A program made the position numbers and the translations under genes. The notes below the pieces were generated by a model. That model worked only from the letters and a program-made list of their open reading frames with translations. It did not search any database and was not told the origin of the DNA. Shown one piece after another: positions 4,665 through 56,392 of a stretch of DNA of 64,000 bases; positions within the stretch are counted from its first letter, which is position 1, and each line of letters begins with the position of its first letter. Source of the stretch: a bacterium (GTDB lineage Bacteria; Sysuimicrobiota; Sysuimicrobiia; Sysuimicrobiales; Kaftiobacteriaceae); the NCBI GenBank assembly GCA_036004445.1, contig DASYRL010000012.1, positions 23,853 to 87,852 of the forward strand, read 5' to 3'.

Positions 4665-5375
4665 ATGGATCACACCAAGCACGCCTCCACCCAGTCCCCG
4701 CGCCGCGGGGGAACGGTCCGGACGAAGGTTGTTCGGATCCTCATCGCCGAGGACCACGCAATCGTGCGCGAGGGGATCCGGATGATCCTGGCGACCCAGC
4801 CGGACTTCGAAGTAATCGGTGAAGCCGCCGGTGGCGCCGAGGCCTTGGTCCTTGTTGACGACCTGCACCCCGACGTCGTGGTCATGGACATCAGCATGCC
4901 GGGGATGAACGGTGTCGACGCCACGCGCGCGATCCGGAAGACGTACCCCGAGGTGCACGTGCTGATCCTGACCATGCACGAGGAAGAGTCGTTCGTCTTC
5001 CAGCTCCTGCAGCTGGGGGCGTCGGGCTATGTGCTCAAGCGGGCGGCCGCGACCGACCTGGTTGACGCGGTGCGGGCGGCGAGCCGCGGCGAGGCCTTTC
5101 TGTATCCGGCGGTGGCGCGCAGCCTGGTCCAGGACTACCTGGAGAACGTCCGCACCGGTCGCCGGAGTCCCCGACAGGACGGGCTCACCGACCGTGAGCG
5201 CGAAGTCCTGGTGCTGATTGCCGAAGGCCTCACCAACGCCCAGATCGCAGACAAGCTCTTCATCAGCGTGAAAACCGTGCAAACCCACCGGACCCACATC
5301 ATGGAGAAACTCGACCTCCACGATCGAGGCCACCTCGTCCGCTACGCCGTCCGCAAGGGTCTCATTCAACCCTAG
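4665..5375 (+). CDS. NarL/FixJ-family response regulator, paralog of the 2430..3083 gene
   Basis: Near-identical blocks to the first regulator (VVMDISMPG, ILTMHEEESFVF, ASGYVLKRAAATDLV, RGEAFLYP, KTVQTHRTHIMEKL). Confidence 0.9.
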   Translation: MDHTKHASTQSPRRGGTVRTKVVRILIAEDHAIVREGIRMILATQPDFEVIGEAAGGAEALVLVDDLHPDVVVMDISMPGMNGVDATRAIRKTYPEVHVLILTMHEEESFVFQLLQLGASGYVLKRAAATDLVDAVRAASRGEAFLYPAVARSLVQDYLENVRTGRRSPRQDGLTDREREVLVLIAEGLTNAQIADKLFISVKTVQTHRTHIMEKLDLHDRGHLVRYAVRKGLIQP

Positions 5376-5438
5376 GAAACGAGGAAACGCGGGAGCGGGT
5401 GGACTTTGTTTCCCCGTCTCCGCGTTTTCCCGTTTTCC
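5375..5438. repeat. tandem-unit hairpin (GGAAACG units / complementary CGTTTTCC arm)
   Basis: ggaaacgaggaaacgcggg ... cccgtctccgcgttttcccgttttcc; between response-regulator stop and pfkA start. Confidence 0.8.
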
Positions 5439-5459
5439 GCCGTTGCGGGGATAAGATGA

Positions 5460-6437
5460 GTGAAGATGAGACGCATCGGTGTCCTGACAAGCGGCGGCGA
5501 CGCGCCGGGCATGAATGCGGCCATCCGCGCCGTCGTGCGCGCGGGGATCGCGGCGGGGGTCGAGGTCTGGGGGGTAGGGCACGGGTACACTGGTCTAATC
5601 GCAGGCGAGCTGAGACCGCTCGGGCCGCGGGACGTCGGCGGCATCATCCACCAGGCCGGCACGGTCCTGCACAGCTCCCGCTGTGAGGACTTCTTTCATG
5701 ACGCCGGACGGCGCGAAGCCATCGAGACCATCGGGCAGTACGGCCTCAGCGGCCTGGTCGTCGTGGGAGGTAGTGGATCGCAGCGCGGGGCCGCGGACCT
5801 ATCAGCGATGGGCGTCCCCGTCGTGGGCGTGGCGTCGACGATCGACAACGACATTTACGGAGCCGACATCAGCATCGGCGTGGACACCGCGCTCAACATC
5901 GCGCTGGAGGCGATCGATCGGTTGAAGATGACGGCGTCCTCGCTGCAGCGCGCCTTCCTCGTCGAGGTCATGGGGCGGGACTGCGGCTACCTGGCGTTGA
6001 TGGCGGGGCTGGCCGGCGGGGCAGAGACCATCGTCATCCCTGAAGTCGAGACGGATCCTGCGGCCGTGTTCGCAGAGCTCGCAGCCTCAGCCGACCGAGG
6101 CAAGCTGCACGCCTTTGTCGTCGTCGCCGAGGGCGCAGCCTACAACGCGGAACGGCTCATCGCGTATGCGCGAGAGCATCGCCAGGCCATCGGGTTCGAG
6201 CTGCGCGCCACGATCCTTGGCCACGTCCAGCGAGGCGGGAGTCCGACCGCGTTCGACCGCCTGCTGGCCACCCGCGCGGGAGCGGCGGCGGCCCAGGCGC
6301 TCCACGACGGGACGCACGGTGTGATGTTCGGTCTGCGCGACGGAGCAATCGCAGCGACTCCGCTGGTCGACGTGAAGGCCCGGCGGAAGGAGCTCGATCT
6401 GCGGCTGCTCGAGCTGGCGCGGATCATGGCGACCTAG
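5460..6437 (+). CDS. pfkA: ATP-dependent 6-phosphofructokinase
   Basis: GVLTSGGDAPGMNAAIRAVV, GGSGS, MGRDCGYLAL motifs, about 325 aa. Confidence 0.93.
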   Translation: MKMRRIGVLTSGGDAPGMNAAIRAVVRAGIAAGVEVWGVGHGYTGLIAGELRPLGPRDVGGIIHQAGTVLHSSRCEDFFHDAGRREAIETIGQYGLSGLVVVGGSGSQRGAADLSAMGVPVVGVASTIDNDIYGADISIGVDTALNIALEAIDRLKMTASSLQRAFLVEVMGRDCGYLALMAGLAGGAETIVIPEVETDPAAVFAELAASADRGKLHAFVVVAEGAAYNAERLIAYAREHRQAIGFELRATILGHVQRGGSPTAFDRLLATRAGAAAAQALHDGTHGVMFGLRDGAIAATPLVDVKARRKELDLRLLELARIMAT

Positions 6438-6438
6438 G

Positions 6439-6477
6439 CCGGGAACCGGGAACTGGGAACAGGGAACAGTGAACCGG
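6439..6477. repeat. tandem GGGAACNG x5 array in the 42-nt spacer between pfkA and the aldolase gene
   Basis: ccgggaaccgggaactgggaacagggaacagtgaaccgg; complementary-type array (GTTCCC units) lies at 18455..18484. Confidence 0.8.
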
Positions 6478-6479
6478 CC

Positions 6480-7499
6480 ATGAGCGACCAACGACGAACG
6501 ACGAACGACGATCGGAACCTCAGCATCGGCAAGCTGCGGGGCCTGCAGCAGTTATCCGATGGCCGCGGCATCTTTGCCATGTGCGCGATGGACCATCGCG
6601 GGTCCCTCCGCAGGATGCTCAACCCCGCGGCGCCGGGCCAGGTACGCGCCCCCGACATCACTACCTTCAAACTGGACCTCGCTGAGATGCTCGCACCTAC
6701 GGCCACGGCGGTCCTGCTCGATCCAATCTACGGCGCCGCCCAGGCCGTTGCGGCCGGGGTGCTGCCGGGACACACCGGCCTGATCGTTTCGGCGGAGGAA
6801 TCCGGATATGAGGAAACGCCGGCCGGCCGGATCACCACGCTCCTCCCAGACTGGAGCGTGGCCAAGATCAGACGCATGGGCGCGTCGGGAGTCAAACTGC
6901 TCCTGTACTATCGGCCCGACCGCGCGGAGTCGGCTGCCCGCCAGCGCGCCGTCGTCGATGGCGTCGCGGCCGCGGCGGCGGACGCGGATCTGCCGTTCGT
7001 GCTGGAGCCGCTCCTCTACGCGCTGACAGCATCCGAACGGTCCTCAGAAAGCCTGGGCGGAATTCGCGCCGATCTCGTTGCGCAGTCGGCTGCGGAACTG
7101 GCACCGCGGGGGCCGGACATATTAAAGGTAGAGTTTCCCGGCCGCGGGCTTGGACCCGAGCGCTGGGCCGAAGTGTGCGCCCGGCTGGACGAGACCACGC
7201 CGATCCCCTGGGTCCTGCTCAGCGGCGGGGCCGGGTACGACGAGTTCCTCCGCTGGGTCGAAGCGGCATGTCGCGCCGGGGCCTCCGGATTCCTCGGCGG
7301 CCGCGCGGTCTGGGAGGACGCGGCATCTCTTGACCGCGGCTCTCGCCGGCGTTGGCTCCAGACTACCGGCGCGGACCGGATGCGCCGCCTCTCCGACATC
7401 GCCGGCGAATTCGGCCGGCCCTGGTGGAAGAAATACGCGGAGCGCTCCTCTGACCTCGCAACTCCTGACGCCCTTTGGTATCGGACATACGGATCGTAA
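6480..7499 (+). CDS. class I aldolase of the LacD family (tagatose-1,6-bisphosphate aldolase family)
   Basis: FAMCAMDHRGSL...LDP...KLLLYYRP...KVEFPG blocks typical of LacD-type class I aldolases; first codons are tandem CGACGAA repeats. Confidence 0.75.
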   Translation: MSDQRRTTNDDRNLSIGKLRGLQQLSDGRGIFAMCAMDHRGSLRRMLNPAAPGQVRAPDITTFKLDLAEMLAPTATAVLLDPIYGAAQAVAAGVLPGHTGLIVSAEESGYEETPAGRITTLLPDWSVAKIRRMGASGVKLLLYYRPDRAESAARQRAVVDGVAAAAADADLPFVLEPLLYALTASERSSESLGGIRADLVAQSAAELAPRGPDILKVEFPGRGLGPERWAEVCARLDETTPIPWVLLSGGAGYDEFLRWVEAACRAGASGFLGGRAVWEDAASLDRGSRRRWLQTTGADRMRRLSDIAGEFGRPWWKKYAERSSDLATPDALWYRTYGS

Positions 7500-7678
7500 T
7501 TCCGATCAAACCTTCTGCGATTGGGCGGGTGGAAGGGGCGGTCTGTGGATGGCTGAATCGGCGGTGGCCGCCTCCGAGCATCCTGCCGCCACTGATTTGG
7601 CTGACTAGGAAATACTCCGCGCCCGACGAACACGGAGAGGGCGTGGACCACGACACAATCCTCAGCACGACGCGGCAG

Positions 7679-8836: not shown

Positions 8837-8845
8837 GCCACGACC

Positions 8846-10073: not shown

Positions 10074-11156
10074 ATGAAGTTTACGGTTGTAGGGTCGTAC
10101 GACGATCCGGTCCTGGCGTGGGTCGTCGGCGGGTTGAAAGAGGTTTTCACCCACCACGGCCACACCTACGTCGACGACCCGGACAACGAGGATCTGCGGC
10201 TGGTCATCAACTGCATCGACGTCGAGCATCCCCGTCCGTACCGCCGTAGGGCGAAAGCCGTCTTCGTGCTCTCCATCGCGGTGACCGACCAGAAGCCGGA
10301 GAACGTGCTGAAGCAAGCCTACCCGCTGCTGGTCAGATCGTTGGCCAACCTCTGCCTGTACCTCGTCCGCGACGGCGGCACGGTCAACACCTACTTCGTC
10401 ACCCTGGAGCAAGGCTACTACGCGATCCCCGAGCTGGGCGAGCGAGAGTACTTCGAATACATCTTCAAGCGCCTGTACCCGCTGGCGTCGTCGCAGTTGG
10501 TCATCGACAACCAGTTCGACGCTGACCTGGAGGCGGAGTTATGGCACGGAGACGCGCTGACCGCTCAGCTCTCCGACGCCGGCAAGCGGCTGGACGCCCT
10601 CGACCTGCTGCCGGCGCCGTTCCCGATCCACGAACTGCTCGATGAGCGGGACCTGCGGCACATCGAGCGGCTCTACGGCATCGGCGGGCTCAGCTACGGG
10701 AATCTCAGCGTCCGCAAGGACCCGGCTCGGTTCTGGATGAGCGCGAGCGGCGTTGACAAGTCCAACATGAAGGTGATCGGCCGCGACATGTTGATGGTGA
10801 AGGGGTTTGATGCCGAACGCAACGTGATCCTGCTCAGCGTCCCCCCCGACGTCAAGCCGCGGCGCGTGTCCGTCGACGCCATCGAACACTGGATGATCTA
10901 CACCGAGCATCCCGAGGTCGGCGCGATCGTCCACGTTCACGCCTGGATGGAGAACATCTCGTCGACGACGATCAACTACCCGTGCGGGACGATCCAGCTG
11001 GCCCAGGCGGTAGCCGACGTCGTCCGCGATGCGTCAACGCCGGGCCGCGCCGTCGTCGGCCTGAAGAACCACGGGCTCACGATCACGGGCCCAACGCTAT
11101 CGGATATCTTTGACCGACTAGAGCGGGGGTTCATTCGGCAGGTCCCGATGTCCTGA
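10074..11156 (+). CDS. fusion protein: unknown N-terminal domain + class II aldolase/adducin-family C-terminal domain
   Basis: C-terminal half has class II aldolase signature (SASGVDKS...HVHAW...GLKNHG); ATG 10074 behind GGGAGGAG RBS; N-terminal ~170 aa have no recognisable motif. Confidence 0.65.
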   Translation: MKFTVVGSYDDPVLAWVVGGLKEVFTHHGHTYVDDPDNEDLRLVINCIDVEHPRPYRRRAKAVFVLSIAVTDQKPENVLKQAYPLLVRSLANLCLYLVRDGGTVNTYFVTLEQGYYAIPELGEREYFEYIFKRLYPLASSQLVIDNQFDADLEAELWHGDALTAQLSDAGKRLDALDLLPAPFPIHELLDERDLRHIERLYGIGGLSYGNLSVRKDPARFWMSASGVDKSNMKVIGRDMLMVKGFDAERNVILLSVPPDVKPRRVSVDAIEHWMIYTEHPEVGAIVHVHAWMENISSTTINYPCGTIQLAQAVADVVRDASTPGRAVVGLKNHGLTITGPTLSDIFDRLERGFIRQVPMS

Positions 11157-11167
11157 CTGCGTCCACT

Positions 11168-11260
11168 CAGTCTTCCCTGTCTCCCCAGTCTTCCCAGTCT
11201 CCAACCAGCCCGTGTTGTAGCAGGTAGACAGGGTAGACAGGGTAGACTGGGTAGACTGGG
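11168..11260. repeat. tandem-unit hairpin (CAGTCTYCC units / GGTAGACWG arm)
   Basis: cagtcttccctgtctccccagtcttcccagtctcc ... ggtagacagggtagacagggtagactgggtagactgggtga; second arm runs into the GTG start of the next gene. Confidence 0.85.
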
Positions 11261-12495
11261 TGACGCCTTTGAAAGCTCTGGTATTTGATCCGACGATTCC
11301 GCGCTTCCTGGCGACGAAGGCGCTGTCGGCCGTGTCGCAGAACGCGTTGTGGGGCGCGTGGGCACCGCTGCAATATCGCGAGATCCCGGATCCGCCGCTG
11401 CCGGGGGACGATTGGGTCCGGGTCCGCACCATCCTCGGCGGGGTATGCGGCAGCGATCTCTCCGCAATTCACCTCACGACCAGTCCGGCAGGGTCCGTCC
11501 TGACGTCATTTCCGTGCGTCCTCGGCCACGAAAACGTCGGGACGATTGTCGAAGTGGGGCGGGGCGTGCACGATCTCACCCCCGGCCTGCGGGTCACCGT
11601 GGAACCCACGCTGCCCTGCGCCGCGCGAGGGATCGCTCCGCTCTGCGCCAACTGCGCCACCGGGAACTACAACATCTGCCTGCGCTACACCGAGGGCCAC
11701 ATCAGCCCCGGACTCAGCCTCGGTTTTTGCCGCGATACCGGGGGCAGCTGGGGGCAGACGTTTGTGGCCCATCGTTCCCAGATTCTCCCCGTCCCCGACG
11801 CCGTCTCGGACGAGAACGCCCTAATGGTCGAGCCGATGGCGGTGGCCCTGCACCCGTTTCTGCGACATCCGCTTCATGCCGGACAAACGGTGCTCGTCGT
11901 GGGGGGAGGGGTCATCGGGCAGTCGGTGGTCGCCGTCCTGCGGGCGTTGGGCGCGCCGGTCCGGATCGTTGTGCTGGCGAAGTACGCCTTTCAGGAGCAG
12001 ATGGCGCAGCGGCTGGGTGCGGATGAGACAGTGCGATTGCAGCGCGGCGACGGGCACTACGAGGCGCTGGCGTCGCTGCTGGGGGCGAAGCTGCATCGAC
12101 CGTTGATCGGATCTCGCGTGCCTGTCGGCGGAGGCGCCGACGTCACCGTCGAGTGCGTCGGCGGCGGCCGCAGTATCGGAGATGCGCTGTGGTGGACGCG
12201 CCCGGGTGGCTCCATGATCCTGCTGGGGGTGGCGGCCCTGCCGCGTGGGGTGGACTGGACGCCGATCTGGCTGAACGAGCTGCGCGTGCTCGGCAGCTAC
12301 ATCTACAGCATGGAGTCGTGGGAAGGCCGCCGCGTGCGCACGATGGACCTCGTGCTGGACTGGATCGCGCGCGGCCGGCTCGATCCGGCGCCGCTGGTGA
12401 CGCACCGGTTTCCGCTGAGCGACTACACCGGGGCGCTACGAACCGCGATGGGGAAGGCCCACTCGCAGGCTTTCAAGGTGGCCTTCACTCCTTAA
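11260..12495 (+). CDS. zinc-dependent alcohol dehydrogenase family (MDR; sorbitol/threonine dehydrogenase-like)
   Basis: GVCGSDLS, GHENVGTIVEVG, VVGGGVIGQ nucleotide-binding motif. Confidence 0.85.
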   Translation: MTPLKALVFDPTIPRFLATKALSAVSQNALWGAWAPLQYREIPDPPLPGDDWVRVRTILGGVCGSDLSAIHLTTSPAGSVLTSFPCVLGHENVGTIVEVGRGVHDLTPGLRVTVEPTLPCAARGIAPLCANCATGNYNICLRYTEGHISPGLSLGFCRDTGGSWGQTFVAHRSQILPVPDAVSDENALMVEPMAVALHPFLRHPLHAGQTVLVVGGGVIGQSVVAVLRALGAPVRIVVLAKYAFQEQMAQRLGADETVRLQRGDGHYEALASLLGAKLHRPLIGSRVPVGGGADVTVECVGGGRSIGDALWWTRPGGSMILLGVAALPRGVDWTPIWLNELRVLGSYIYSMESWEGRRVRTMDLVLDWIARGRLDPAPLVTHRFPLSDYTGALRTAMGKAHSQAFKVAFTP

Positions 12496-12498
12496 GAG

Positions 12499-12599
12499 CG
12501 TCTACTCAGTCTTCTCAGTCTCCTCCGTCTACTCCGTGCCACGCACGGATGTTGGGTGAGACGGTGAAGACGGAGTAGACGGTGGAGACGGTGAAGACG
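12499..12599. repeat. tandem-unit hairpin (GTCTNC units) between convergent genes
   Basis: cgtctactcagtcttctcagtctcctccgtctactccgtg ... gagacggtgaagacggagtagacggtggagacggtgaagacg. Confidence 0.85.
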
Positions 12600-12607
12600 C
12601 AGTTGGG

Positions 12608-13882
12608 TTAAGGGTAGATGCCCCTGGTCATGAGTGCGTCCGCGACCCGGCGGACCGCAAAGATTAGGGCGGCGGTGCGCAGGTCGACCTCGCGCTCCCG
12701 CGCCAGCTCGACGACGCTGTGGAAACTGCGCACGATGATGCGCTCGAGCCGCTCGTTGATCTCGGCTTCGCTCCAGAACAACGACTGCAGGTCCTGCACC
12801 CACTCAAAGTAGGAGACGACAACCCCGCCGGCGTTGGCCAGGATATCGGGGACGATGAACACCCCGCGTTCCTCCAGGATCTCGTCGGCTTCCGGGGTGG
12901 TGGGGCCGTTGGCGCCTTCGACGATGAGGCGCGCTTTAATCCGCGCGGCGTTGTCCCGCGTGATCTGGCCTTCAATGGCGGCCGGGACGAGGAAGTCGCA
13001 GGGGACTTCCAGCAACTGCGCGTTCGAGACCGGCTCGGTTTGCGGGAACCCGGCGACGCCGCCGGTCTCCTTCACGTGACGCAGGACGGCGCGGGGATCG
13101 AAGCCGCCGGAATTGTAGATACCGCCGGCGATGTCGCTGACCGCGACGACCCGGCAGCCCTGGTCGTGCATGAGATAGGCGGCGGTGGCACCGACGTTGC
13201 CGAATCCCTGGACGGCCACGCGCGCGCCGGCGAAGGGAACGTCACGTACGCGCGCGGCTTCGCGCGCGGCAATCATCACGCCGCGGCCGGTCGCCTCGCG
13301 CCGCCCGGCCGACCCGCCGATCGAGATCGGCTTCCCCGTCACGGCGGCGGTGATCGAGTGCCCCGCGTGCATGCTCAAGGTATCCATGAACCACGCCATG
13401 ATCTGGTCATTCGTGCCCACGTCGGGCGCAGGGATGTCGCGGTCCGCCCCCACGATGACGCTGATCTCCGACGCATACCGCCGGGTCAACCGTTCCAGCT
13501 CAGCGGTCGACAGCGCCCGCGGGTCACAGGCAACGCCCCCTTTTGCCCCGCCGTAGGGCAGGTGCATCAGGGCGCACTTCCAGGTCATCCACATCGCCAG
13601 CGCGCGGACTTCGCTGACGTTCACGTGCGGGCTGTAGCGGATGCCGCCCTTGGTCGGCCCGAGCACCATGCTGTGGTGGATCCGGTACCCGGTGAAGATG
13701 GAGACGGTACCGTCATCCATCTTCACCGGGAAGTTGACGGTAAGCTCGCGCTGCGGATGGGCGAGGTACTCCCGGATGCCGCGCTTCATCGGGACGTGCT
13801 CGCACGCACGGTAGAACTGGCGCAGCGCCATCTCCCAGGGGTCGTCGGCAGGTCGCGGCGGAGCCGGGATGATCTGTTTCAT
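12608..13882 (-). CDS. gdhA: NAD(P)-specific glutamate dehydrogenase
   Basis: GGAKGGVACDP, GFGNVGATAAY and Glu/Leu/Phe/Val dehydrogenase family blocks. Confidence 0.93.
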   Translation of the reverse strand: MKQIIPAPPRPADDPWEMALRQFYRACEHVPMKRGIREYLAHPQRELTVNFPVKMDDGTVSIFTGYRIHHSMVLGPTKGGIRYSPHVNVSEVRALAMWMTWKCALMHLPYGGAKGGVACDPRALSTAELERLTRRYASEISVIVGADRDIPAPDVGTNDQIMAWFMDTLSMHAGHSITAAVTGKPISIGGSAGRREATGRGVMIAAREAARVRDVPFAGARVAVQGFGNVGATAAYLMHDQGCRVVAVSDIAGGIYNSGGFDPRAVLRHVKETGGVAGFPQTEPVSNAQLLEVPCDFLVPAAIEGQITRDNAARIKARLIVEGANGPTTPEADEILEERGVFIVPDILANAGGVVVSYFEWVQDLQSLFWSEAEINERLERIIVRSFHSVVELAREREVDLRTAALIFAVRRVADALMTRGIYP

Positions 13883-15574: not shown

Positions 15575-16435
15575 CTATAGTACTCTGCCTGCCACTCGCG
15601 GACCACTCCCGGAAGGTTGGTGGAGTTTGATGATAGCGCATTGCGAACGCCGAATCGCGCGGCCCGATCCAGATGCTTTGAGTTTCCGAATCCGATCTCC
15701 CAGACGTACCGCTCGATGTCTCTCCGTCGCGTCAGATACCACGGAGTAGCCGCTGATCCTAGACGGATGATAACCCAGATTGAGGAGGATCTTCCTGGTT
15801 CCGTCCAGCAAAGGGATCGAACGGTTCTTGAACAACATCTGCGGCGCGTTGAAGTGTTTCAGAAGATAGATGGAGCCATCTGTGTCGAAGAATCCGCGGA
15901 CGAATCGTTGTTGGTACTCAATCTCACTCAGGATCCAATCTGGAATGCCAACCTGATCTTTGACTTTGTTCGCCGAATAGAGTCCAATGCTGGGCAGCTC
16001 TCTCATAAGAGGGGTCGAGGTGAGGTAAAGGTCAACCACTGAGTGATCTTTCACTTGGCTCCTAGGCGGTCTGTAGTGGAACAAGGCTTCAACCAGGTCT
16101 TGAACGTAGGCGACGTATTGAGCGTCCGTCTTGATGTTGGCTGTGATGGTAAGCTGGCGCGTTCCTAGATGGCCATCTCCAAGCATGATGCCGCAGAACT
16201 CAGCCAGGTCACCGGAATGTGCAGGCACGTGGAGTATCCTCGCGTTGTGGCTTCCTCGTTGAGGGCCCTTCGGCTGAGTAGGAATTCCCAGTCGTACGAG
16301 ACGATCATATATAGAACCTGGGTGCAATTTCAGTATTGCCCCTGTCTCGAAGATGGTTTTGTTCTGACGTACGTAGAGTTCAGTTAGCTCCTCACGCTTC
16401 TCGCGCTCCTCCAGTTCGGTCCATCGCCGCGGCAT
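15575..16435 (-). CDS. free-standing double-motif LAGLIDADG homing endonuclease with N-terminal HTH-like region
   Basis: Two dodecapeptide motifs GIMLGDGHL and GFFDTDGSIYL; gene GC is markedly lower than its surroundings; stop lies 6 nt from the VIT start. Confidence 0.8.
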   Translation of the reverse strand: MPRRWTELEEREKREELTELYVRQNKTIFETGAILKLHPGSIYDRLVRLGIPTQPKGPQRGSHNARILHVPAHSGDLAEFCGIMLGDGHLGTRQLTITANIKTDAQYVAYVQDLVEALFHYRPPRSQVKDHSVVDLYLTSTPLMRELPSIGLYSANKVKDQVGIPDWILSEIEYQQRFVRGFFDTDGSIYLLKHFNAPQMLFKNRSIPLLDGTRKILLNLGYHPSRISGYSVVSDATERHRAVRLGDRIRKLKASGSGRAIRRSQCAIIKLHQPSGSGPRVAGRVL

Positions 16436-16557: not shown

Positions 16558-16644
16558 GGGCGGGTGCTGTGAGCGGCAAAACGGGCTGACTGTAGATCAG
16601 CTGGCTTAACGCCTACGGAGGTTCGAGTCCTCTCCCGCCCACCA
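16558..16644 (+). tRNA. tRNA-Tyr (anticodon GTA), long variable arm, CCA encoded
   Basis: Acceptor GGGCGGG/CCCGCCC, anticodon stem GCTGA/TCAGC with loop CTGTAGA, T-loop GGTTCGAGTCC, 3' ACCA; folded by hand, D-arm atypical. Confidence 0.75.
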
Positions 16645-16652: not shown

Positions 16653-16754
16653 CCAGTCTACCCAGTCTACCCAGTCTACCCAGTCTACCCGGTCTACCCA
16701 GTCAATAGAGGTGAGGCAGGTAGAGCGCTTGAGACTGGGAAGACTGGGTAGACG
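16653..16754. repeat. tandem-unit hairpin (CAGTCTACC x5 / GGTAGAC arm) immediately 3' of tRNA-Tyr
   Basis: ccagtctacccagtctacccagtctacccagtctacccggtctacccagtc ... ggtagagcgcttgagactgggaagactgggtagacg. Confidence 0.85.
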
Positions 16755-16766
16755 CAGTTGTCCTGG

Positions 16767-16837
<71 letters not shown>

Positions 16838-16840
<3 letters not shown>

Positions 16841-18454: not shown

Positions 18455-18484
18455 CGGTTCCCTGTTCCCGGTTCCCCGCTCCCG
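18455..18484. repeat. tandem GTTCCCNG array (complement of the 6439 array) in the folD-folC spacer
   Basis: ggttccctgttcccggttccccgctcccgg directly upstream of the folC ATG. Confidence 0.75.
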
Positions 18485-18491
18485 GTCTTCC

Positions 18492-19829
18492 ATGACGTAC
18501 GACGACGCGCTGGCGTTCATCAACGGCCTGCTCGACCGCGGCAACGCGCCGCCCATCGGCTACGAAGAGCGGCGGCTCCGGCGGATGGAGGACCTGCTCG
18601 CCCGCCTGGGCGACCCACATCGCCGCCTGCGCACGGTGCTGGTCGCGGGGACCAAAGGCAAAGGCTCGACCGCCATCATGCTCTCCTCGATCCTGGAAGC
18701 CACCGGGCGCAGGGTGGGACTGTACACCAAGCCGCACCTGGTCGACTACCGCGAGCGGATCCGGATCAACGGCGCGCTGATCTCCCCCACGGCACTGGCC
18801 GACGGGGTTGCGCGCGTCCGGCCTCACGTTGAGGCCATGCGGTCGGGGCCGTTCGGGCGCCCCACCTATTTTGAAGTGGCCGTGGCACTGGCCATGGAGT
18901 ACTTCGTTCGGAAGGCGGTCGATCTCGCGGTGATGGAGGTAGGGCTCGGCGGGCGGCTGGATGCGACCAACGTGGCGGAGCCGATCCTGTCGATTCTCAC
19001 CCCGGTCAGTTTTGATCACATGGAGGTCCTCGGCGAGACGCTGGCGTCGATCACGCGGGAGAAGGCGGGAATCATCCGCCCGCACGGCATGGTCGTCAGC
19101 GCCCCGCAGGCGCCCGAGGCACTGGCGGAAATTATCGGCGTGTGTAACGCGCAGGACGCAACGCTGATCGTCGCCGACGAGATCATGCAGTGGAGGCTGC
19201 TGCACACCAGGGTCCACGATCAGACGTTCCGGCTGCGCAGTCCCTCGCGCGACTACGGCACGCTGACGCTGCCGCTGGTCGGAACGCATCAGCTGGAGAA
19301 TGCGGCGACCGCGGTTGCCGCCGCTGAGGCACTATCCCGTCGCGGGGTCTCATGCTCGGAGGAGGCGGTGCGGGTCGGATTAGCCGCCCTCCGTTGGCCC
19401 GCCAGAGTCGAAGTGATCCGGGAGCGTCCGGCCGTGGTGCTCGACGTCGCGCACAACCCCGCATCGATCGCGGCCCTGCGCCACACGCTGGAGGCGCTGT
19501 TCCCCCGGCGGCGGTTCATCCTGGTCTTCGGCATGGTGGCCACGCACGATCACCGCGCGTCGACCAGCCTGATCGCCCCGCTGGCGGACACCGTCATCGC
19601 CACCACTCCCCAGCACGTCCGTCCGCTGCCGGCGGCCGCGCTGGCCGAAGAAGCGGCCCGCTACGCGCCCGCTGTGGAAGTCATCCCCGACCGTTTCGCC
19701 GCAGTCGATCGTGCGCTGGCGCTCGCGGGCTCGGACGACGTCGTCGTGATCACCGGGTCCTTTTTCCTCGTGGGAGACGTGAGGGAACATCTGATAAGCA
19801 AGGTCGGGATAAGAGGGATAATGGGATAA
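18492..19829 (+). CDS. folC: folylpolyglutamate synthase / dihydrofolate synthase
   Basis: VAGTKGKGST P-loop, Mur-ligase-family middle and C-terminal domains. Confidence 0.9.
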   Translation: MTYDDALAFINGLLDRGNAPPIGYEERRLRRMEDLLARLGDPHRRLRTVLVAGTKGKGSTAIMLSSILEATGRRVGLYTKPHLVDYRERIRINGALISPTALADGVARVRPHVEAMRSGPFGRPTYFEVAVALAMEYFVRKAVDLAVMEVGLGGRLDATNVAEPILSILTPVSFDHMEVLGETLASITREKAGIIRPHGMVVSAPQAPEALAEIIGVCNAQDATLIVADEIMQWRLLHTRVHDQTFRLRSPSRDYGTLTLPLVGTHQLENAATAVAAAEALSRRGVSCSEEAVRVGLAALRWPARVEVIRERPAVVLDVAHNPASIAALRHTLEALFPRRRFILVFGMVATHDHRASTSLIAPLADTVIATTPQHVRPLPAAALAEEAARYAPAVEVIPDRFAAVDRALALAGSDDVVVITGSFFLVGDVREHLISKVGIRGIMG

Positions 19830-21430
19830 TGTGGGTTGACGTCATCGTCGAAGACATCCTGGCCTCGCGCCCGTCCGATCGCTACGTCATCAACGACGCG
19901 AAGAGCCCGTCCGGCCCGATTCACGTCGGCTCCCTGCGCGGGGTAGTGCTGCACGACTGTGTTCTGCGCGGCCTGCGGGATCGGGGACGGGACGCCGTGT
20001 TCCTCTACGGGTTCGACGACTATGATCCGTTTGACTCGCGTCCCCAGGTCGTGCCCGAAGAGTTCGATCGCTATCTGGGCGTCCCGCTGTCGGAGCTCCC
20101 GTCCCCTGCCGGCGACGGCCGCAGCTACGCACAACACTACGGGCAGAGCTTCGCCGACGTGTGGCGGAAGGTCGGCGCCGATCCCCAGATCTACTGGACG
20201 AGCGAGATGTACAAGTCCGGACGCTTCAACGACGCGATCCGCCTCGCCCTCGACCGTGCCGAGGACCTGATCCGCATCGACCGGGAGATCAGCGGGAGCC
20301 AGAAGGCCGAACGCCACCCGATCCAGCCGCTGTGCGAGGCGTGCGGACGGATCGGAACCACCGTCGTGACCGGATGGGACGGGACTCGCGTCTCCTATGA
20401 GTGCCGGCCGGATAAGGTGGCGTGGGCCCGCGGTTGCGGCCACCGCGGGGAGCGGTCGCCCTTCGACGGCGGCAGCAAGCTTCAGTACAAGGCCGAATGG
20501 GCCGCGAAGTGGCGGATTCTTCAGGTTTCGATTGAAGGTGCGGGAAAGGACCACATGACCAAGGGCGGGAGCCACGACGTGGCCAGCGGCATGGTCGAGC
20601 GCGTGTTTGCGTATCCGACCCCGTATCCGATTCCGTACGAGTGGTTCCTCGTCGGCGGGCGTAAGATGAGCACGAGCAAAGGGTTGGGCGTACCGGCGGC
20701 CGAGCTGACGGCGATCCTGCGCGCGGACCTGGCGCGTTTTCTGATGGTGCGGCCGCACTACCGGCAGCAGATCAACTTCGATCCGGGCGGCGAGACGATC
20801 CCGACGCTGTACGACGACTACGATCGCGCCGCCGCGGCATACTTCGGAACGGCTGAGGCGTCGTCGCCCGCGGAGGCCGATACCATCCGGGACTACGCGC
20901 GGACGTTCTTCTTCTCCCGCATTGGGGGGGAGCAGCCGCGCTGCCACCGGATCCGCTTCTCGAAGGTGGCCTACCTGATCCAGATGCCAAAGGTTGACCT
21001 CCGCGAGGCCGCCGCCGACGACAAGGGCGCGCCGCTGCTGCCTGCGGATGTGAACGAGCTTGAGACCCGGGCCGCCGATGCCCGGCGCTGGCTGAAAACG
21101 TACGCGCCGGAGTCCTATCGCTTCGACGTCCAGGCGACCCTCCCGCCGGTGGCGCTGTCAGCCCGCCAGCGCGACTTCCTCGCGCGGCTGGCTCCGCTGA
21201 TTGCCGACGGCGCGGCCGGCGGGGAGGTCCTGCAGGCCGCGATTCATACCCTGAAGAGCGAGATGGGCGTGCCGGCGAAGGAAGCGTTCAGCGCGATCTA
21301 CCTCGCGGTCCTCGGCAAAGACTCCGGTCCGCAGGCGGGATGGCTGCTGGCGTCGCTGGACCGCGGGTTTGTCCTGACACGCCTGCGCGAAGCCGCCGGC
21401 TCAGGCCAGGCCCCGGGCCCCAGGCCCTAG
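19829..21430 (+). CDS. lysK: class I lysyl-tRNA synthetase (archaeal-type LysRS)
   Basis: HIGH-region variant SGPIHVGSLRG and KMSKS variant KMSTSKG, about 533 aa; ATG overlaps the folC TAA (taATG). Confidence 0.85.
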   Translation: MWVDVIVEDILASRPSDRYVINDAKSPSGPIHVGSLRGVVLHDCVLRGLRDRGRDAVFLYGFDDYDPFDSRPQVVPEEFDRYLGVPLSELPSPAGDGRSYAQHYGQSFADVWRKVGADPQIYWTSEMYKSGRFNDAIRLALDRAEDLIRIDREISGSQKAERHPIQPLCEACGRIGTTVVTGWDGTRVSYECRPDKVAWARGCGHRGERSPFDGGSKLQYKAEWAAKWRILQVSIEGAGKDHMTKGGSHDVASGMVERVFAYPTPYPIPYEWFLVGGRKMSTSKGLGVPAAELTAILRADLARFLMVRPHYRQQINFDPGGETIPTLYDDYDRAAAAYFGTAEASSPAEADTIRDYARTFFFSRIGGEQPRCHRIRFSKVAYLIQMPKVDLREAAADDKGAPLLPADVNELETRAADARRWLKTYAPESYRFDVQATLPPVALSARQRDFLARLAPLIADGAAGGEVLQAAIHTLKSEMGVPAKEAFSAIYLAVLGKDSGPQAGWLLASLDRGFVLTRLREAAGSGQAPGPRP

Positions 21431-21436
21431 GCTGCC

Positions 21437-22390: not shown

Positions 22391-22400
22391 CGACGAAACG

Positions 22401-22479
22401 GTGACTTGTGACTCGTGACTGGTGACTCGCACTACGTAACCATGTCGATCGAGTCACGAGTCACGAATCACGAGTCACC
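22401..22479. repeat. tandem-unit hairpin (GTGACTYG x4 / CGAGTCAC x4) upstream of the EF-G paralog
   Basis: gtgacttgtgactcgtgactggtgactcg-loop-cgagtcacgagtcacgaatcacgagtcacc; followed by GGAGG and GTG start. Confidence 0.9.
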
Positions 22480-34242: not shown

Positions 34243-35442
34243 ATGACTCCCGTGAGCGATCTGATACTGGCCGACCGCATGGCCGGCCTGGGCACGGAAA
34301 CTGCGTTCGAGGTGCTCGCCAGAGCCCGCGAATTGGAGCGGCAGGGCAGGTCGGTCGTGCACCTGGAGATCGGCGAGCCCGACTTCGACACTCCCGAGCA
34401 CATCAAAGAGGCGGCCGTGAAGGCCCTGGCGGATGGGTACACGCACTATACGCCTTCCGCCGGCCTGCACGAGGCTCGGGAAGCCGTTGCCGAGCACGTC
34501 GCGGTCACTCGCGGCATCCGCGTGGATCCCTCGGAGGTCGTGATCACTCCCGGCAGCAAGCCGATCATGTTCTTTGCCATCCTCGCACTGGTCAATCCCG
34601 GCGACGAAGTCATCTATCCTGATCCGGGCTACCCGATCTACGAATCGGTTGCCCGCTTCGTCGGCGGCGTCCCTCGGCCGCTGTCGCTGCGCGAGGAGCG
34701 TGGGTTCCGCGTCGACCCCGACGAACTCGCCGCCTTGGTCACGCCGAAGACCCGCCTGGTTATTCTGAACTCTCCGCACAACCCGTGCGGGTCGGTCCTC
34801 ACCCGCGAGGACCTGACGGCGATTGCCGGTGCGCTGGCGCGGTCGAACGCCTACGTCCTCGCGGACGAAATCTACTGGCAGATTACCTACGACGCCGAGC
34901 ACACCAGCCTCGCCGCGCTGCCTGGCATGCAGGAGCGCACGATCATCCTCGACGGGTTTTCCAAGGCGTACGCGATGACGGGATGGCGGCTGGGGTACGG
35001 CGTGATGCGCCGGGACCTGGCCGCGAAGATGGCGCAGCTGATGGTCAACACGGCATCATGCGCGGCGGCGTTCACTCAGATGGCCGGGATCGCCGCGCTG
35101 CGCGGGCCGAAGGAGCCGGTGCGGGCGATGGTGGCGGAATTCCGCCGGCGCCGCGACGTTATCGTCGACGGTCTCAATGCCATCGAGGGCGTCTCCTGCA
35201 CGCGGCCCCACGGAGCGTTCTATGCGTTTCCGAACGTGGCGCGCCTCGACGCCGACAGCAAGCGGCTGGCCGATTTTCTCCTCACCGACGCCGGGGTGGC
35301 CTGTCTGTCGGGGACGGCGTTCGGACGACACGGGCAGGGTTTCCTGCGCTTCTCATACGCCAACAGCGTCGAGCAGATTCAGGAGGCGCTGCGTCGCGTG
35401 GCCGAGGCACTCAAGCGCTATCCCGCGCCTGCCCGATCGTGA
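34243..35442 (+). CDS. pyridoxal-phosphate-dependent aminotransferase class I (aspartate aminotransferase-like)
   Basis: NPGDEVIYPDPGYP, SKAYAMTGWRLGY (PLP lysine region). Confidence 0.9.
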   Translation: MTPVSDLILADRMAGLGTETAFEVLARARELERQGRSVVHLEIGEPDFDTPEHIKEAAVKALADGYTHYTPSAGLHEAREAVAEHVAVTRGIRVDPSEVVITPGSKPIMFFAILALVNPGDEVIYPDPGYPIYESVARFVGGVPRPLSLREERGFRVDPDELAALVTPKTRLVILNSPHNPCGSVLTREDLTAIAGALARSNAYVLADEIYWQITYDAEHTSLAALPGMQERTIILDGFSKAYAMTGWRLGYGVMRRDLAAKMAQLMVNTASCAAAFTQMAGIAALRGPKEPVRAMVAEFRRRRDVIVDGLNAIEGVSCTRPHGAFYAFPNVARLDADSKRLADFLLTDAGVACLSGTAFGRHGQGFLRFSYANSVEQIQEALRRVAEALKRYPAPARS

Positions 35443-35510
35443 CTCGTGACTCGTGACTCGACATGCTCGAGGTGTAGTGGCTAGTCACTAGTCACGAGTC
35501 ACTAGTCACG
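35438..35510. repeat. tandem-unit hairpin (GTGACTCG x3 / CTAGTCAC arm) bridging two convergent gene ends
   Basis: cgtgactcgtgactcgtgactcg-loop-ctagtcactagtcacgagtcactagtcacg; aminotransferase TGA and lipoprotein TAG stops lie inside the repeat units. Confidence 0.9.
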
Positions 35511-36035
35511 CAGTGTTCCGGGTCTAAAGGTCCGCACGACTTCATCGCACTGCTTTTGTCCATCGCGCCATTTATCGAAGGGTTTGGCGCAGACGAGGAC
35601 GTAGGTCTTCGCGGCTCCTGAAACGGCCACCCCGACCGACGCCCACTCGACGCCTCCGGAGCTCCCTGTCACCTCGAACTTGTCCCACCGCGCGTCGGGA
35701 CTGCTCCGCGGATCCTGCTGAAAGCCCGAGACCCCGTGAATGGTCAGCTCGGAGAAGACCAGGCGGCGCACGCCCGATTCATCCAGCGGTCCGCTGACGT
35801 CGGTCACGAAGACCGCGATGAATTCACTCGACGCGTCGGGTACGGGCGTCCCCGGCGGGACGAAGCGAATGCGCCCGCCGCCGCCGTCCGACCTGGTCCA
35901 CTCAGGCGGCGTCCGCACCGCGAATCCCGTGGCCTCGTCGCGTTGTTCGGTGAGCGGCGTCTCCTGACGCGGCTGACACCCTGTGAGGAGGAGCGCCCAG
36001 AGCAGTACGACGGCGGCGGTCGATCCGCGTCTCAT
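35502..36035 (-). CDS. lipoprotein, hypothetical
   Basis: Lipobox MRRGSTAAVVLLWALLLTGC; the other 337 aa of track ORF 35502..37046 are antisense to the ADH gene and rejected. Confidence 0.55.
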   Translation of the reverse strand: MRRGSTAAVVLLWALLLTGCQPRQETPLTEQRDEATGFAVRTPPEWTRSDGGGGRIRFVPPGTPVPDASSEFIAVFVTDVSGPLDESGVRRLVFSELTIHGVSGFQQDPRSSPDARWDKFEVTGSSGGVEWASVGVAVSGAAKTYVLVCAKPFDKWRDGQKQCDEVVRTFRPGTLRD

Positions 36036-36272
36036 GTTGGGTCGAATTCGTGCACCCCCGCTGCGGTCCTGGGTCCGCGTGTATCTAGCCTCGAAGAGCT
36101 CAGCATCGGCAACGTCGCATGCGCAGGACCGGCTTCGCCGAGTCCGAGCATCACACGCGAAGGAAAGCAGGGAAACGCGGGGAGGGGGAGGTTCGGAAGG
36201 GGGAGGGAATCGCTCTCCCCCTTCGAGTGGCACAGAGGGCCGGTCGCGCGTGCCGGGGAAGTGCACACATCG

Positions 36273-51913: not shown

Positions 51914-51931
51914 CGAGGACCGCGGGCGTCG

Positions 51932-51963
51932 CCATGAACCCGAGCGCAGCGAGTGGTTCATGG
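51932..51963. repeat. REP-like 32-nt hairpin, copy 2, sharing the CCA of tRNA-Val
   Basis: ccatgaacc-cgagcgcagcgagt-ggttcatgg; stem carries an A:T pair where copy 1 has C:G. Confidence 0.8.
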
Positions 51964-52037: not shown

Positions 52038-52090
52038 CCCCGGCCTTCTATTATACGTGGTGGATGGCGAGCCGTGAACCGAGGTGGCAG

Positions 52091-54690: not shown

Positions 54691-54769
54691 ACTTCCGGTA
54701 TACCCATCCTGCGGACGACCGCAGACTCCAGGGCAGGGGGGCCGAACTCGGGCGTGAAACGGGTGGGGG

Positions 54770-55261
54770 ATGCGTGCCGTCGTACAGCGGGTCACCGAGG
54801 CGCGGGTCCGGGTCGCCGGCGAGACCGTGGCGGAGATCGGGCGGGGATACGTCGTCCTGGTGGGAGTGAGCACATCCGATGGTCCGCACGACGCCGGCGC
54901 GCTCGCCGACAAAGTCGCCCACCTGCGGGTCCTCAGCGACGACGCGGGAAAGATGAACCGCTCGATCCTCGATGCCGGCGGCGAGGTGCTTTCTGTCTCA
55001 CAGTTCACGCTGTACGGGGATACGAGCCGCGGGCGGCGCCCCAGTTTCATCGAGGCCGCCGCGCCGGCCGTGGCGGCGGTGCTTTACGAGCGGTTCAACG
55101 AGCGCCTCCGCGCGCTGGGGGTTCCGGTCCAGACCGGCGCGTTCCGGGCGATGATGTCAGTGGAAATCTACAACGATGGGCCAGTGACAATCTTGCTGGA
55201 TACTGCCGGGGAGAGTTCGGGATCAAGGGGATCAGAGGGATCAAAGGGATCCGCAGAATGA
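54770..55261 (+). CDS. dtd: D-aminoacyl-tRNA deacylase
   Basis: [22 protein letters not shown] motifs; C-terminal 15 aa ([15 protein letters not shown]) are encoded by a GGGATCAR tandem repeat. Confidence 0.85.
55219..55252. repeat. tandem GGGATCARR x4 array forming the dtd 3' end
   Basis: gggatcaaggggatcagagggatcaaagggatcc. Confidence 0.8.
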
Positions 55262-55325
55262 AGAGCGACCGGGGGTACGATTGCCGATCCCCGTGATCGC
55301 CTTGATCCCTATGATCCCGCAGTCG

Positions 55326-55874
55326 TCAGTCGACCGTAAAGGTGAAATCGGGGGCCGGGAACCGCAGGAACCCGACCTGCACCGCCCACTCCAGCGTGTT
55401 TGTCCCCCGCACGAGCGGCAGGGTGATGCCGAAATTCCCCCGCGTCACCGAACCCCGCGCCATGCTCTTGGCCTCGACGTGATTGACGATCACCGTGGCC
55501 GTGGGGTGGGACTTGATCGTCAGTGCGCCGGTCACTGCCGCCGCCATCTTCGTCAGGTCCAGGTCGATGCTCAGCCATTCCACGTACTTGGTGGCGCCGC
55601 GGGGCAGGTCGAATCTCAGCCGCCGCGTCTGTCCGTCGCTGACCGCGATCAGCGAAATCGGCAGCGTCCCGTTCACCACAAAGGTGCCGTTGTCGTTCGC
55701 GTGCGCAGTAGTCCCCGCGACGGCGATAACCGTGCCCGGCCGCGTCGTCCCGCGGACCTCCACGGTACCCGAGGCCGCCGTGTACTTGAGATCCACCGCC
55801 AGCGGCAGTGGAGTCTGTCCGATCGCCGGGGTCGCCAACAGCAGGGCCACCAGCACCAGCACGATCACCCGCAT
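55326..55874 (-). CDS. secreted hypothetical protein
   Basis: ATG 55874 behind GGAGGAG; signal peptide MRVIVLVLVALLLATPAIGQ; upstream part of track ORF (to 56228) rejected. Confidence 0.55.
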   Translation of the reverse strand: MRVIVLVLVALLLATPAIGQTPLPLAVDLKYTAASGTVEVRGTTRPGTVIAVAGTTAHANDNGTFVVNGTLPISLIAVSDGQTRRLRFDLPRGATKYVEWLSIDLDLTKMAAAVTGALTIKSHPTATVIVNHVEAKSMARGSVTRGNFGITLPLVRGTNTLEWAVQVGFLRFPAPDFTFTVD

Positions 55875-56084
55875 CAATGGTCTCCTCCATGCCCGCGTTA
55901 TGGCCATCACACTCATATCACTACGCAGCGTCTCGTCGCCGAGTTCCAACAGTGCTTCAGTGTACGGGTCTGACAGCGGACCGCATAGGACCTGTGATAG
56001 CGGTGCCGCGCCGATTTGACAACAATCCGGAAATCGACGTATACTGACTTCTGATCGGCGAAGACGAGGACGAGTACGCTGCGT

Positions 56085-56392
56085 GCCGTTGCCCAGGAGA
56101 GAGGGGAGGATCCGGTGAGAGCTCCCTGGCGGTGCAGCTGAAGACCCCCTCCGAGCCGCCGCTTGAAACGTGAAAAGTGAATCGTGAATAGTGAATCGCA
56201 TCTGGAGTTTCCGGGTGGTCCGATTCACGAGTCACGATTCACGAGTCACGAAGTAAGGTTGGCCGTTTTCCCCGCGTGAAGGGGTTGCGAGCGCCGCCTT
56301 CGAACTGCGTGGGCGGAAGCAGGGTGGAACCGCGGGCCAGCCCCTCGTCCCTATGTGGACGGGGGTGTTTTGTTTTCCGGGGGAGGACGATC
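56085..56392 (+). promoter_or_regulatory. T-box riboswitch leader of thrS
   Basis: T-box sequence AGGGTGGAACCGCGG at 56321..56335; terminator hairpin cccctcgtcc/ggacgggg + U-tract at 56336..56376, ending 17 nt before the thrS ATG; 5' boundary and specifier loop not resolved. Confidence 0.7.
56169..56249. repeat. tandem-unit hairpin (GTGAATMG x3 / CGATTCAC arm) embedded in the thrS leader
   Basis: gtgaaaagtgaatcgtgaatagtgaatcg-loop-cgattcacgagtcacgattcacgagtcacg. Confidence 0.85.

Follow-up and report, generated by a model that had tools for sequence, protein, structure and literature searches.

What kind of element builds a hairpin out of tandem repeats, and are such stem-loops at the ends of genes a selected feature of the RNA or tolerated selfish DNA? 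The question is raised by a 64,000-nt stretch of DNA from a bacterium of the Sysuimicrobiota (contig DASYRL010000012.1 of assembly GCA_036004445.1; hereafter the window), with a GC content of ~67% and a housekeeping gene content, in which the spacers between genes hold hairpins whose two arms are each a tandem array, the units of one arm being approximately the reverse complement of those of the other. An initial annotation, made from the letters alone, had pointed out these hairpins, had taken the difference in unit from locus to locus as an argument against descent from a transposed copy, and had recognised in them no described class of repeat. We refer to the tandem-armed hairpins as "palindromic long-unit SSRs" (SSR, simple sequence repeat). 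They are real, they fold strongly and they occur far above chance; that they form a clade-wide class of palindromic repeat elements, similar to repetitive extragenic palindromic (REP) elements and bacterial interspersed mosaic elements (BIMEs) but with short tandem arrays as arms, is a reading to which we give about an even chance.

Hairpins with tandem arrays as arms

Tandem arrays were called with Tandem Repeats Finder (TRF), and the pairing between arms was determined by an inverted-repeat search together with our own array scan (period 6-10); the null distributions were 40 dinucleotide shuffles for the arrays and 200 shuffles per hairpin for folding. According to TRF and the inverted-repeat search, which recovered all the loci named in the initial annotation, the window contains eight two-armed intergenic hairpins of ~66-105 nt each (Table 1). 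Their arm units are 7-9 nt long, contiguous and present in 2-5.7 copies per arm (TRF), and the arms are, as had been claimed, complementary within each locus (75-95%), with 7-54 nt between them. The array at 55219, previously listed as one-armed, is in fact two-armed (55218-55319), with arms of 43 nt and 77% complementarity in the inverted-repeat search, or 38 nt with 30/38 paired in our own scan, and its left arm is the coding sequence for the C-terminus of D-Tyr-tRNA deacylase (dtd). The excess over shuffled sequence, on which the initial annotation had staked its case, is clear: the window has 19 arrays of period 6-10, compared to a mean of 1.45 and a maximum of 5 in the shuffles, and 5 strictly paired arrays, compared to 0. 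The folding energies of the eight hairpins range from -36.5 to -57.2 kcal/mol (z = -4.3 to -9.1), equally good folds appeared in 0/200 shuffles for each of them, and in a centre-scanning search the longest and best-paired arms of the 64 kb (at least 21 nt, at least 78% paired) belonged to tandem-armed hairpins only. Two separate assemblies of the window's species (L001 and L163) carry identical copies of the hairpins at 11168, 12499, 55218 and 56164, and the hairpins are therefore not assembly artefacts. A CRISPR array was ruled out by the contiguous units of 7-9 nt, which differ from repeats of 25-50 nt with unique spacers, and an integron attC site, a retron and an artefact of assembly were ruled out by anatomy, by the conserved housekeeping synteny and by the identity between independent assemblies.

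The 64-kb window has at least five families of unit, with lengths of 7, 8 and 9 nt, and most of them are not G-rich; the survey covered the window and ~160 kb from relatives, and families of three copies each were seen in the window. The hairpins start 0-9 nt past a stop codon or a tRNA 3' end and mostly fill the spacer as far as the next ribosome-binding site or start, in line with the earlier remark that they adjoin stop and start codons. Clade-wide, the contexts comprise ~15 co-directional, 5 convergent and 2 divergent gene pairs. The density is ~0.12 hairpins per kb in the window and ~0.13 per kb in L001, L154, L156, L162, L163 and L166, compared to ~0.008 per kb in ~1.7 Mb of loci from other phyla. 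Clear examples outside the clade lie on the unrelated metagenomic contigs L097 (43% GC), L119 and L137, so the tandem-armed architecture is not unique to the clade.

The relatives used for comparison lie at graded distances. L001, a contig of a soil metagenome-assembled genome (MAG; SMAG_U4708), is 98% identical in DNA to part of the window, L002 is colinear with the window at ~77-83% identity, and the syntenic contigs L154-L167 were collected via FolD and ThrRS homologues (identity to the window in FolD 88% for L154 and 82% for both L155 and L156, in ThrRS 85% for L164 and 78% for L166). The closest named genome is Candidatus Geohabitans tengchongensis, of the phylum Candidatus Sysuimicrobiota (CSP1-3), and relatives in ThrRS carry the labels 'Bacillati bacterium ANGP1' or 'Armatimonadetes bacterium'. 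About 50 open reading frames (ORFs) of the window were scanned against Pfam. The assembly GCA_036505015.1 (DASXUC01) is a mixed bin, as its two syntenic contigs come from different relatives: L001 is 98% DNA-identical to the window, while the FolD of L155 is only 82% identical.

Table 1. Tandem-armed hairpins and single arrays of the window (energies in kcal/mol; units of the two arms separated by a slash)
Feature	Position	Strand	Units and tail	Setting	Energy	z
Two-armed hairpin	5375..5440	.	8-nt GGAAACGN / NCGTTTCC, GGAAACG-type	starts at stop codon of LuxR-type response regulator, upstream of PFK; co-directional genes	-36.5	-4.6
Two-armed hairpin	11161..11265	.	9-nt CAGTCTNCC / GGTAGACNG; left-side tail ACTGCGTC, the reverse complement of GACGCAGT	fills class II aldolase/ADH spacer; co-directional genes	-54.2	-5.5
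Two-armed hairpin	12498..12603	.	9-nt (C/A)GTCTNCTC / GAGACGGTG; tail GACGCAGT	between convergent ADH and GDH	-53.5	-4.3
Two-armed hairpin	16653..16756	.	9-nt CCAGTCTAC / GTAGACTGG; tail GACGCAGT	between tRNA-Tyr (16558-16644) and tRNA-Gly (16767-16840)	-57.2	-6.8
Two-armed hairpin	22400..22479	.	7-nt GTGACTN / NGAGTCA	from 2-hydroxyacid dehydrogenase stop to ribosome-binding site of EF-G, which starts at 22495; co-directional	-52.0	-9.1
Two-armed hairpin	35438..35510	.	7-nt GTGACTC / (C/G)TAGTCA-type; tail CACGCAGT	overlaps stop codon of aminotransferase (plus-strand gene); downstream gene uncertain	-39.6	-5.0
Two-armed hairpin	55218..55319	.	9-nt GGGATCANN / NNTGATCCC; tail CCGCAGT	between convergent dtd and minus-strand 182-aa ORF	-53.4	-5.0
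Two-armed hairpin	56164..56251	+	7-nt GTGAANN / GA(T/G)TCAC	thrS T-box leader	-47.2	-8.4
One-armed array	3106..3128	+	CGGGAAG x3.3	divergent spacer		
One-armed array	6439..6477	+	GGGAACN x5.6 (TRF)	fills spacer from PFK stop to aldolase start		
In-gene array	6485..6511	+	CGACGAA x3.9	first codons of DeoC-type aldolase		
One-armed array	18455..18486	+	CGGTTCC x4.6, complement of the 6439 unit	spacer from FolD stop to FolC start		
One-armed array	19806..19831	+	GGGATAAN x3	encodes FolC C-terminal tail, overlaps LysRS start		

Several sites in and around Table 1 call for a remark of their own. The CGACGAA array lengthens the DeoC-type aldolase by ~9 residues at its N-terminus and is not found in L002, where the PFK/aldolase spacer, occupied in the window by the 6439 array, is only ~10 nt long. 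The FolD/FolC spacer holds a related array in L154 and none in L155 or L158, and in L162, a hot-spring relative, a conventional REP-like palindrome, TTTGGGGTCAGACCCC, occurs in it twice (10867-11116). The ~760 nt downstream of the 35438 hairpin (35511-36275) contain no confident gene, and in the long ORF at 35736-37274 the ADH domain starts only at residue 207. An ordinary non-tandem hairpin with 17/18 pairs follows thrS (58369-58435) and is conserved in L163, so simple stem-loops also occupy gene ends in the window's genome.

Turnover, gain and replacement in orthologous spacers

The window, L154 and L156 share an orthologous hairpin upstream of EF-G, which is kept across FolD identities of 82-100% and is absent from L158, L160 and L162. 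Its units read GTGACTC:GAGTCAC in the window and GTGAATC:GATTCAC in L154 and L156, which is the kind of covarying change that the initial annotation had suggested looking for in orthologous spacers. Over the 17 unit pairs of the GTGANTC family, positions 1-4 are invariant, position 5 is an A-T pair in 8, a C-G pair in 5 and a mismatch in 4, and position 7 is the usual mismatch. The arms thus change together, and complementarity is maintained through the unit changes. The number of units is also variable. In the tRNA-spacer hairpin (16653) the left and right arms count 5.7 and 2.4 units in the window as opposed to 2.7 and 4.4 in L001, although these strains are 98% identical, which bears out the earlier suggestion of slippage: the two alleles show whole units being gained and lost, quickly and on each arm, as slippage would produce. 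Along a stem, mismatches keep to one and the same position of the unit, and in the hairpin of the thrS leader (56164) matched and mismatched unit pairs alternate with a period of 14 on both arms. Such periodic mismatches imply that each arm lengthened through duplication of units it already had, without copying from the opposite arm.

A related history can be read at the C-terminus of FolC, where the array is three copies of GGGATAA in the window, the reverse complement in L155, and a two-armed hairpin with both arms in L158; given that this one site shows either arm or both, the one-armed arrays look like remnants of two-armed ones. Past the conserved GSFFLVGDVRE, the FolC C-terminus is array-encoded and differs in each lineage (window 19740-19831; L155 12140-12222; L158 4790-4985, where the gene's end is ATCTACCCC with a partner arm), so that arrays rewrite protein tails. 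A heptamer array of AGGCCCC type, placed where the LysRS gene ends and its neighbour begins (window 21406-21432; L155 13818-13845), is conserved between the window and the relatives at 82% FolD identity.

Other hairpins are present in one lineage only. Those at 11168 and 12499 (11161..11265 and 12498..12603 in Table 1) are absent from L002, L154, L155, L156 and L162, where the flanking genes overlap or nearly touch, and the former is absent also from L032, with stop and start overlapping or close. At the ADH/GDH junction of L002, L154, L155 and L156 the convergent stop codons overlap (CTAA, CTAG, TTAG) and there is no spacer; the window has 111 nt at this point, flanked by TTAAG at 12492-12496 and 12608-12612. 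The flanks of the hairpins at 11168 and 16653 contain only TGA or TTG-like 3-mers, and a look for target duplications at the T-box hairpin and at the 8790 hairpin of L002 gave no clear case either. The three GTCTAC-type hairpins of the window (11168 as the reverse complement, 12499, and 16653 along with its L001 allele) align with an invariant tail, GACGCAGT, and a hairpin of the same type at a different locus in L166 ends with GTAGACGCA. The hexamer CGCAGT is found at the outer edge of 5/16 hairpin ends, in three unit families and always on one side only, compared to ~0.04 expected, and does not occur in the hairpins of L154, L156 and L162. Unit families recur in a similar manner: the 8-mers GGAAACGC/GGAGCGCG at non-orthologous loci of the window and L166, CACACAAC units at non-orthologous loci of L001, L002 and L154, and GGGATAA/GCGATAA units in the window, L155 and L164.

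One family can also stand in the place of another. The hairpin in the spacer between the response regulator and PFK is GGAAACG-type in the window, while L001 and L002 have a CACACAAC-type one at this site. Five lineages fill the tRNA-Tyr/tRNA-Gly spacer with a structured sequence, of four different kinds, and L160 has none; the spacer is strongly structured in 5/6 lineages (z = -3.0 to -6.1) with unrelated sequences, and in L154 the filling is a non-tandem hairpin and then a T6 run just before tRNA-Gly. The shared families, the shared tails and the recent gains contradict a purely locus-specific origin and imply that copies were made and inserted. The argument that differing units exclude descent from a transposed copy is thus not supported, since unit families turn up again at non-orthologous loci as well as in other genera, the GTCTAC-type copies have the GACGCAGT tail, and two of these copies are absent from every relative examined, one of them being flanked by TTAAG...TTAAG. 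The orthologous spacers show that hairpins are gained, lost and replaced between species, and the family members and tail shared by unrelated loci show that new copies come about through a copy-and-insert process of some kind, not in place alone.

Two further differences were noted close to hairpins. Between L001 (160-266) and the window (5375-7567), the response regulator of L001 is joined directly to the equivalent of window position 7568, with PFK and the aldolase missing, and the break coincides with the hairpin behind the regulator, which is of CACACAAC type in L001 and L002 and of GGAAACG type in the window; this junction may be either a hairpin-associated rearrangement or a join made in MAG assembly. 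On the minus strand at 15575-16435, an ORF with a LAGLIDADG domain has a GC content at third codon positions of 0.59, compared to ~0.85 for its neighbours, and is absent from L001, L154 and L155, in which VIT1 is directly followed by tRNA-Tyr. It has the look of a free-standing, homing-endonuclease-like gene inserted recently next to a tRNA gene.

The thrS leader and the possible roles of the hairpins

The initial annotation had placed one hairpin inside a T-box leader of thrS, and this is confirmed by cmscan, which finds a T-box at 56052-56355 as a full-length match to RF00230 (72.9 bits, E = 1.6e-15, with a gathering score of 93). The 56164 hairpin is a 79-nt insertion in the loop of its stem II. 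It is preceded by a promoter-like site at 56016-56045, with a consensus match at 11/12 positions, and followed by the canonical terminator of thrS, the attenuator, at 56342-56365 (CCCTCGTCCC...GGACGGGGG and then the U-tract UGUUUUGUUU), the start codon being near 56393. The sense strand of this hairpin folds 12 kcal/mol better than the antisense strand. At exactly the site of the window's 4+4 units, the stem II loop of L164 contains one lone GTGAC-GC-GTCAC hairpin, which could be a seed or a collapsed remnant, and that of L165 contains none. L166 has one hairpin ~20 nt upstream of the thrS start, no T-box was detected upstream of this thrS, and the promoter scan called no promoter upstream of the hairpin. 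An Rfam scan at the gathering threshold returned tRNAs only, and the T-box emerged only when an E-value threshold was used. The hairpin could be ruled out as the reason for the low score, because the insertion-free leader of L164 (447-676), at 79.6 bits, is likewise below the gathering score. The thrS T-box leaders of the clade score 73-80 bits, and default annotation would miss them.

How, then, might the hairpins be understood? REP elements stabilise the upstream mRNA at its 3' end and are not intrinsic terminators. As REP/BIME-like elements, the hairpins would be co-transcribed with the neighbouring genes and, having no U-tract, would not by themselves halt RNA polymerase. If active at all, they would serve as stable 3' or intercistronic stem-loops, which would block 3'-to-5' exonucleases and set transcript ends after factor-dependent termination, in the manner of REP elements and of the U-less stem-loops that, in E. 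coli and Streptomyces, mark the 3' ends to which Rho-dependent transcripts are trimmed (PMC13613805). Selection would remove the hairpins from promoters and coding cores, and the arms would lengthen because the duplication of a unit should be the easiest mutational route to a longer stem. We therefore prefer to see the hairpins as REP-like stem-loops, probably acting as RNA, that are tolerated and at times useful at 3' and intercistronic positions. A structural role is favoured by the persistence of hairpins at the same spacers despite the turnover in sequence, and by the retention of the EF-G hairpin with covariation.

A number of points weigh against this interpretation. The role in RNA is one that we purely infer, and many orthologous spacers of the relatives have no hairpin, so no hairpin can be essential. 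There is no preference for folding of the sense strand, with 8/14 co-directional hairpins folding better as sense and a mean difference of +0.9 kcal/mol, so that a DNA-level or neutral element fits as well as an RNA element does; strand asymmetry as a sign of selection on RNA, which held for 6/6 in the window, was dropped once the relatives had been included. A clear target duplication is seen at only 1/3 testable insertions, and this TTAAG duplication could also reflect selection keeping both stop codons. The loops are unrelated among copies of the same family, and neither a transposase in general nor a REP-associated tyrosine transposase (RAYT, a Y1 HUH transposase) was found among the ~50 window ORFs compared with Pfam or among the genes tabulated for the fetched loci. 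Finally, the T-box hairpin can be read as having grown in place from a pre-existing 5-bp hairpin instead of having been inserted.

The strong stems that begin right after stop codons, two of them between convergent genes, could alternatively be factor-independent, bidirectional terminators without a U-tract ('I-shaped'), as had been proposed, which would replace the canonical ones in this high-GC lineage. It fits that canonical sites consisting of a hairpin and a U-tract occur in the window only at chance level (11 vs 8.1, 5 vs 7.7 and 8 vs 7.2 expected), and that L154 has its non-tandem hairpin and T6 run in the very tRNA spacer where the window has a tandem-armed hairpin. The chance that this is correct appears slim, however, as the hairpins lack a U-tract throughout (there are no T-runs in their flanks, and the terminator scan reports none of them) and as the hairpin in the leader of thrS, an essential gene, lies between the promoter and an attenuator that does use a canonical U-tract; on both counts they are not intrinsic terminators. 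Nor is their location that of the ends of transcription units, with one hairpin inside this leader, another between two tRNA genes only 122 nt apart, the L166 hairpin just upstream of the thrS start, two in divergent spacers, and several co-directional spacers filled up to the next ribosome-binding site or start without room for a promoter. Published tests in mycobacteria are also said to show that a U-tract is required for termination. The hairpins could also be selfish or neutral non-autonomous DNA, akin to MITEs (miniature transposable elements with inverted repeats) or to REPINs, mobilised by a dedicated enzyme whose gene lies elsewhere, such as a RAYT/Y1-type HUH transposase recognising the hairpin and its CGCAGT tail, in which case they would have no RNA function and would sit at gene ends simply because insertions are tolerated there. 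This would account for the lack of a sense-strand bias in folding, for the lineage-specific insertions (one with the TTAAG duplication), for copies of one family in both orientations with the GACGCAGT tail, for the excess of CGCAGT at hairpin edges, for the same unit families at other loci in other genera and for the replacement of one family by another within a spacer, and the combination of hairpin and tail recalls the REP/RAYT system, in which GTAG forms a short conserved motif beside the palindrome. We consider it possible but unlikely, given that the window and the fetched loci have no transposase, that target duplications are inconsistent and loops not conserved, that changes in unit number and periodic mismatches bespeak a growth in place of which a cut-or-copy element has no need, that L164 offers a plausible one-unit seed of the T-box hairpin, and that an orthologous hairpin has been retained with covariation over the whole range of FolD identities from 82 to 100%.

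The arrays could also be binding sites for a sequence-specific protein of double-stranded DNA (a GANTC methyltransferase, a restriction-modification, nucleoid or regulatory protein), their hairpin potential being incidental. Every unit of the GTGA(A/C)TC family contains GANTC, with the covarying base as the free N; GANTC, which occurs 180 times in the window compared to 310 expected, is ~7-fold enriched inside the arrays; and the limited unit repertoire is common to several genera. Yet the proposal of a GANTC-binding array applies to that family only: the GTCTAC, GGAAACG, CACACAAC and GGGATCA families are without GANTC, at least five unrelated families would require five proteins, units of 7-9 bp are not phased with the DNA helix, inverted pairing and matched unit numbers are unnecessary for binding, and the GANTC deficit is relative to dinucleotide shuffles, which ignore codon structure. 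We regard this as very unlikely. In the window as a whole, GATC is over-represented (605 vs 429 expected from dinucleotide shuffles, codon effects not excluded), and the GANTC deficit and GATC excess could point to a HinfI-type restriction system or to Dam-like methylation. The formation of G-quadruplexes, proposed for the GGGAATC arrays of Xanthomonas and the GGGGAYT arrays of Nostoc, would find support in the GGG runs and ~4 copies per array of some units (GGGAACN, GGGATCANN, GGGATAAN and the GGGTAGACN arm), four being the preferred number of units in Xanthomonas (PMC4692102). It is scarcely credible as an explanation here, since units without G-runs (GTGACTC/GTGAATC, CACACAAC and CGTCTACTC/GAGACGGTG) have the same architecture, so that the rationale cannot be general, and pairing with the C-rich arm competes with quadruplex formation. 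One could finally speculate about an undescribed route of birth and spread: a small stem-loop or a copied seed would grow on both arms, one unit at a time, and an enzyme or repair pathway recognising the hairpin together with a CGCAGT-type tail would deposit new copies at stop-codon palindromes. Such a REP-like system, working by a mechanism of its own, would be specific to CSP1-3/Sysuimicrobiota, though the Xanthomonas arrays might share it, and we allow it an outside chance.

Precedents and significance

In contrast to the initial view that no described class of repeat matches these hairpins, convergent pairs of intergenic heptamer arrays near ORF ends have been described in Xanthomonas, and a literature search for hairpins with tandem arms, not confined to CSP1-3, brought up only the Xanthomonas/Nostoc and the Beggiatoaceae repeats. 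In Xanthomonas campestris and Xanthomonas citri, GGGAATC heptamer arrays are 89-93% intergenic and typically have ~4 copies (Rehm et al. 2015, PMC4692102); they lie at a mean of 28 nt from the upstream ORF end, are rare between divergent genes and are transcribed, and each genome has 70-75 inverted repeats made up of two arrays on opposite strands. Their length and sequence vary between close species, and their function is unknown (PMC4692102). The convergent GGGAATC arrays are the closest precedent of the window's hairpins and the same kind of object, sharing the tandem units of ~7 nt, the pairs on opposite strands and the intergenic position near the upstream ORF end. They differ in that here at least five families of 7-9 nt, mostly not G-rich, are found in a different, uncultured phylum, and the present loci add arm covariation, changes of unit number per arm, a non-repeat tail, one target duplication and an insertion into a riboswitch stem.

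The resemblance to other elements is more partial. With REP elements, BIMEs and REPINs the hairpins share the form of an imperfect extragenic palindrome, a position at gene 3' ends and between convergent genes, the existence of several families, differences in presence among relatives and, for some of the hairpins, a short motif beside the stem; REP elements, however, are single palindromes of ~20-40 nt and not tandem arrays, are highly uniform, occur in hundreds of copies and are tied to RAYT and the GTAG motif, as opposed to the CGCAGT found here with no RAYT among the window ORFs and fetched loci. The short tandemly repeated repetitive sequences of cyanobacteria and the Beggiatoaceae repeats are likewise abundant intergenic tandem heptamers with lineage-specific units, but they are overwhelmingly one-armed, with 1 inverted set among 170 for the TAACTGA repeats of Beggiatoaceae (PMC4679880) and few pairs among the Nostoc heptamer arrays (PMC4692102), and thus resemble the arrays at 6439 and 18455, not the hairpins. 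Intrinsic terminators are also GC-rich stem-loops just past stop codons, including those between convergent genes, but the hairpins have no U-tract, have stems 3-5 times longer with periodic mismatches, and occur in a 5' leader and between a pair of tRNA genes as well. MITEs, too, are short non-coding insertions with inverted ends, and one 5-bp direct duplication is seen here; the hairpins, in turn, have no conserved internal sequence, have tandem arrays as ends and inconsistent target duplications, and no parent insertion sequence was found.

For the annotation of MAGs from this abundant soil phylum, the arrays matter in that they extend ORF calls, coincide with the difference in contig structure of L001 and cost a few Rfam bits (72.9 vs 79.6). 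More generally, paired long-unit SSR arrays have been catalogued in Xanthomonas, and the Sysuimicrobiota lineage offers a cleaner system: its coexisting unit families allow hairpin formation to be separated from G-quadruplex formation, and its orthologous spacers display covariation, unit turnover, family replacement and one datable insertion. This makes it possible to test how REP-like palindromes originate and grow, whether stem-loops lacking a U-tract sit at gene ends as selected RNA or as tolerated selfish DNA, and how repeats rewrite protein C-termini and riboswitch stems.

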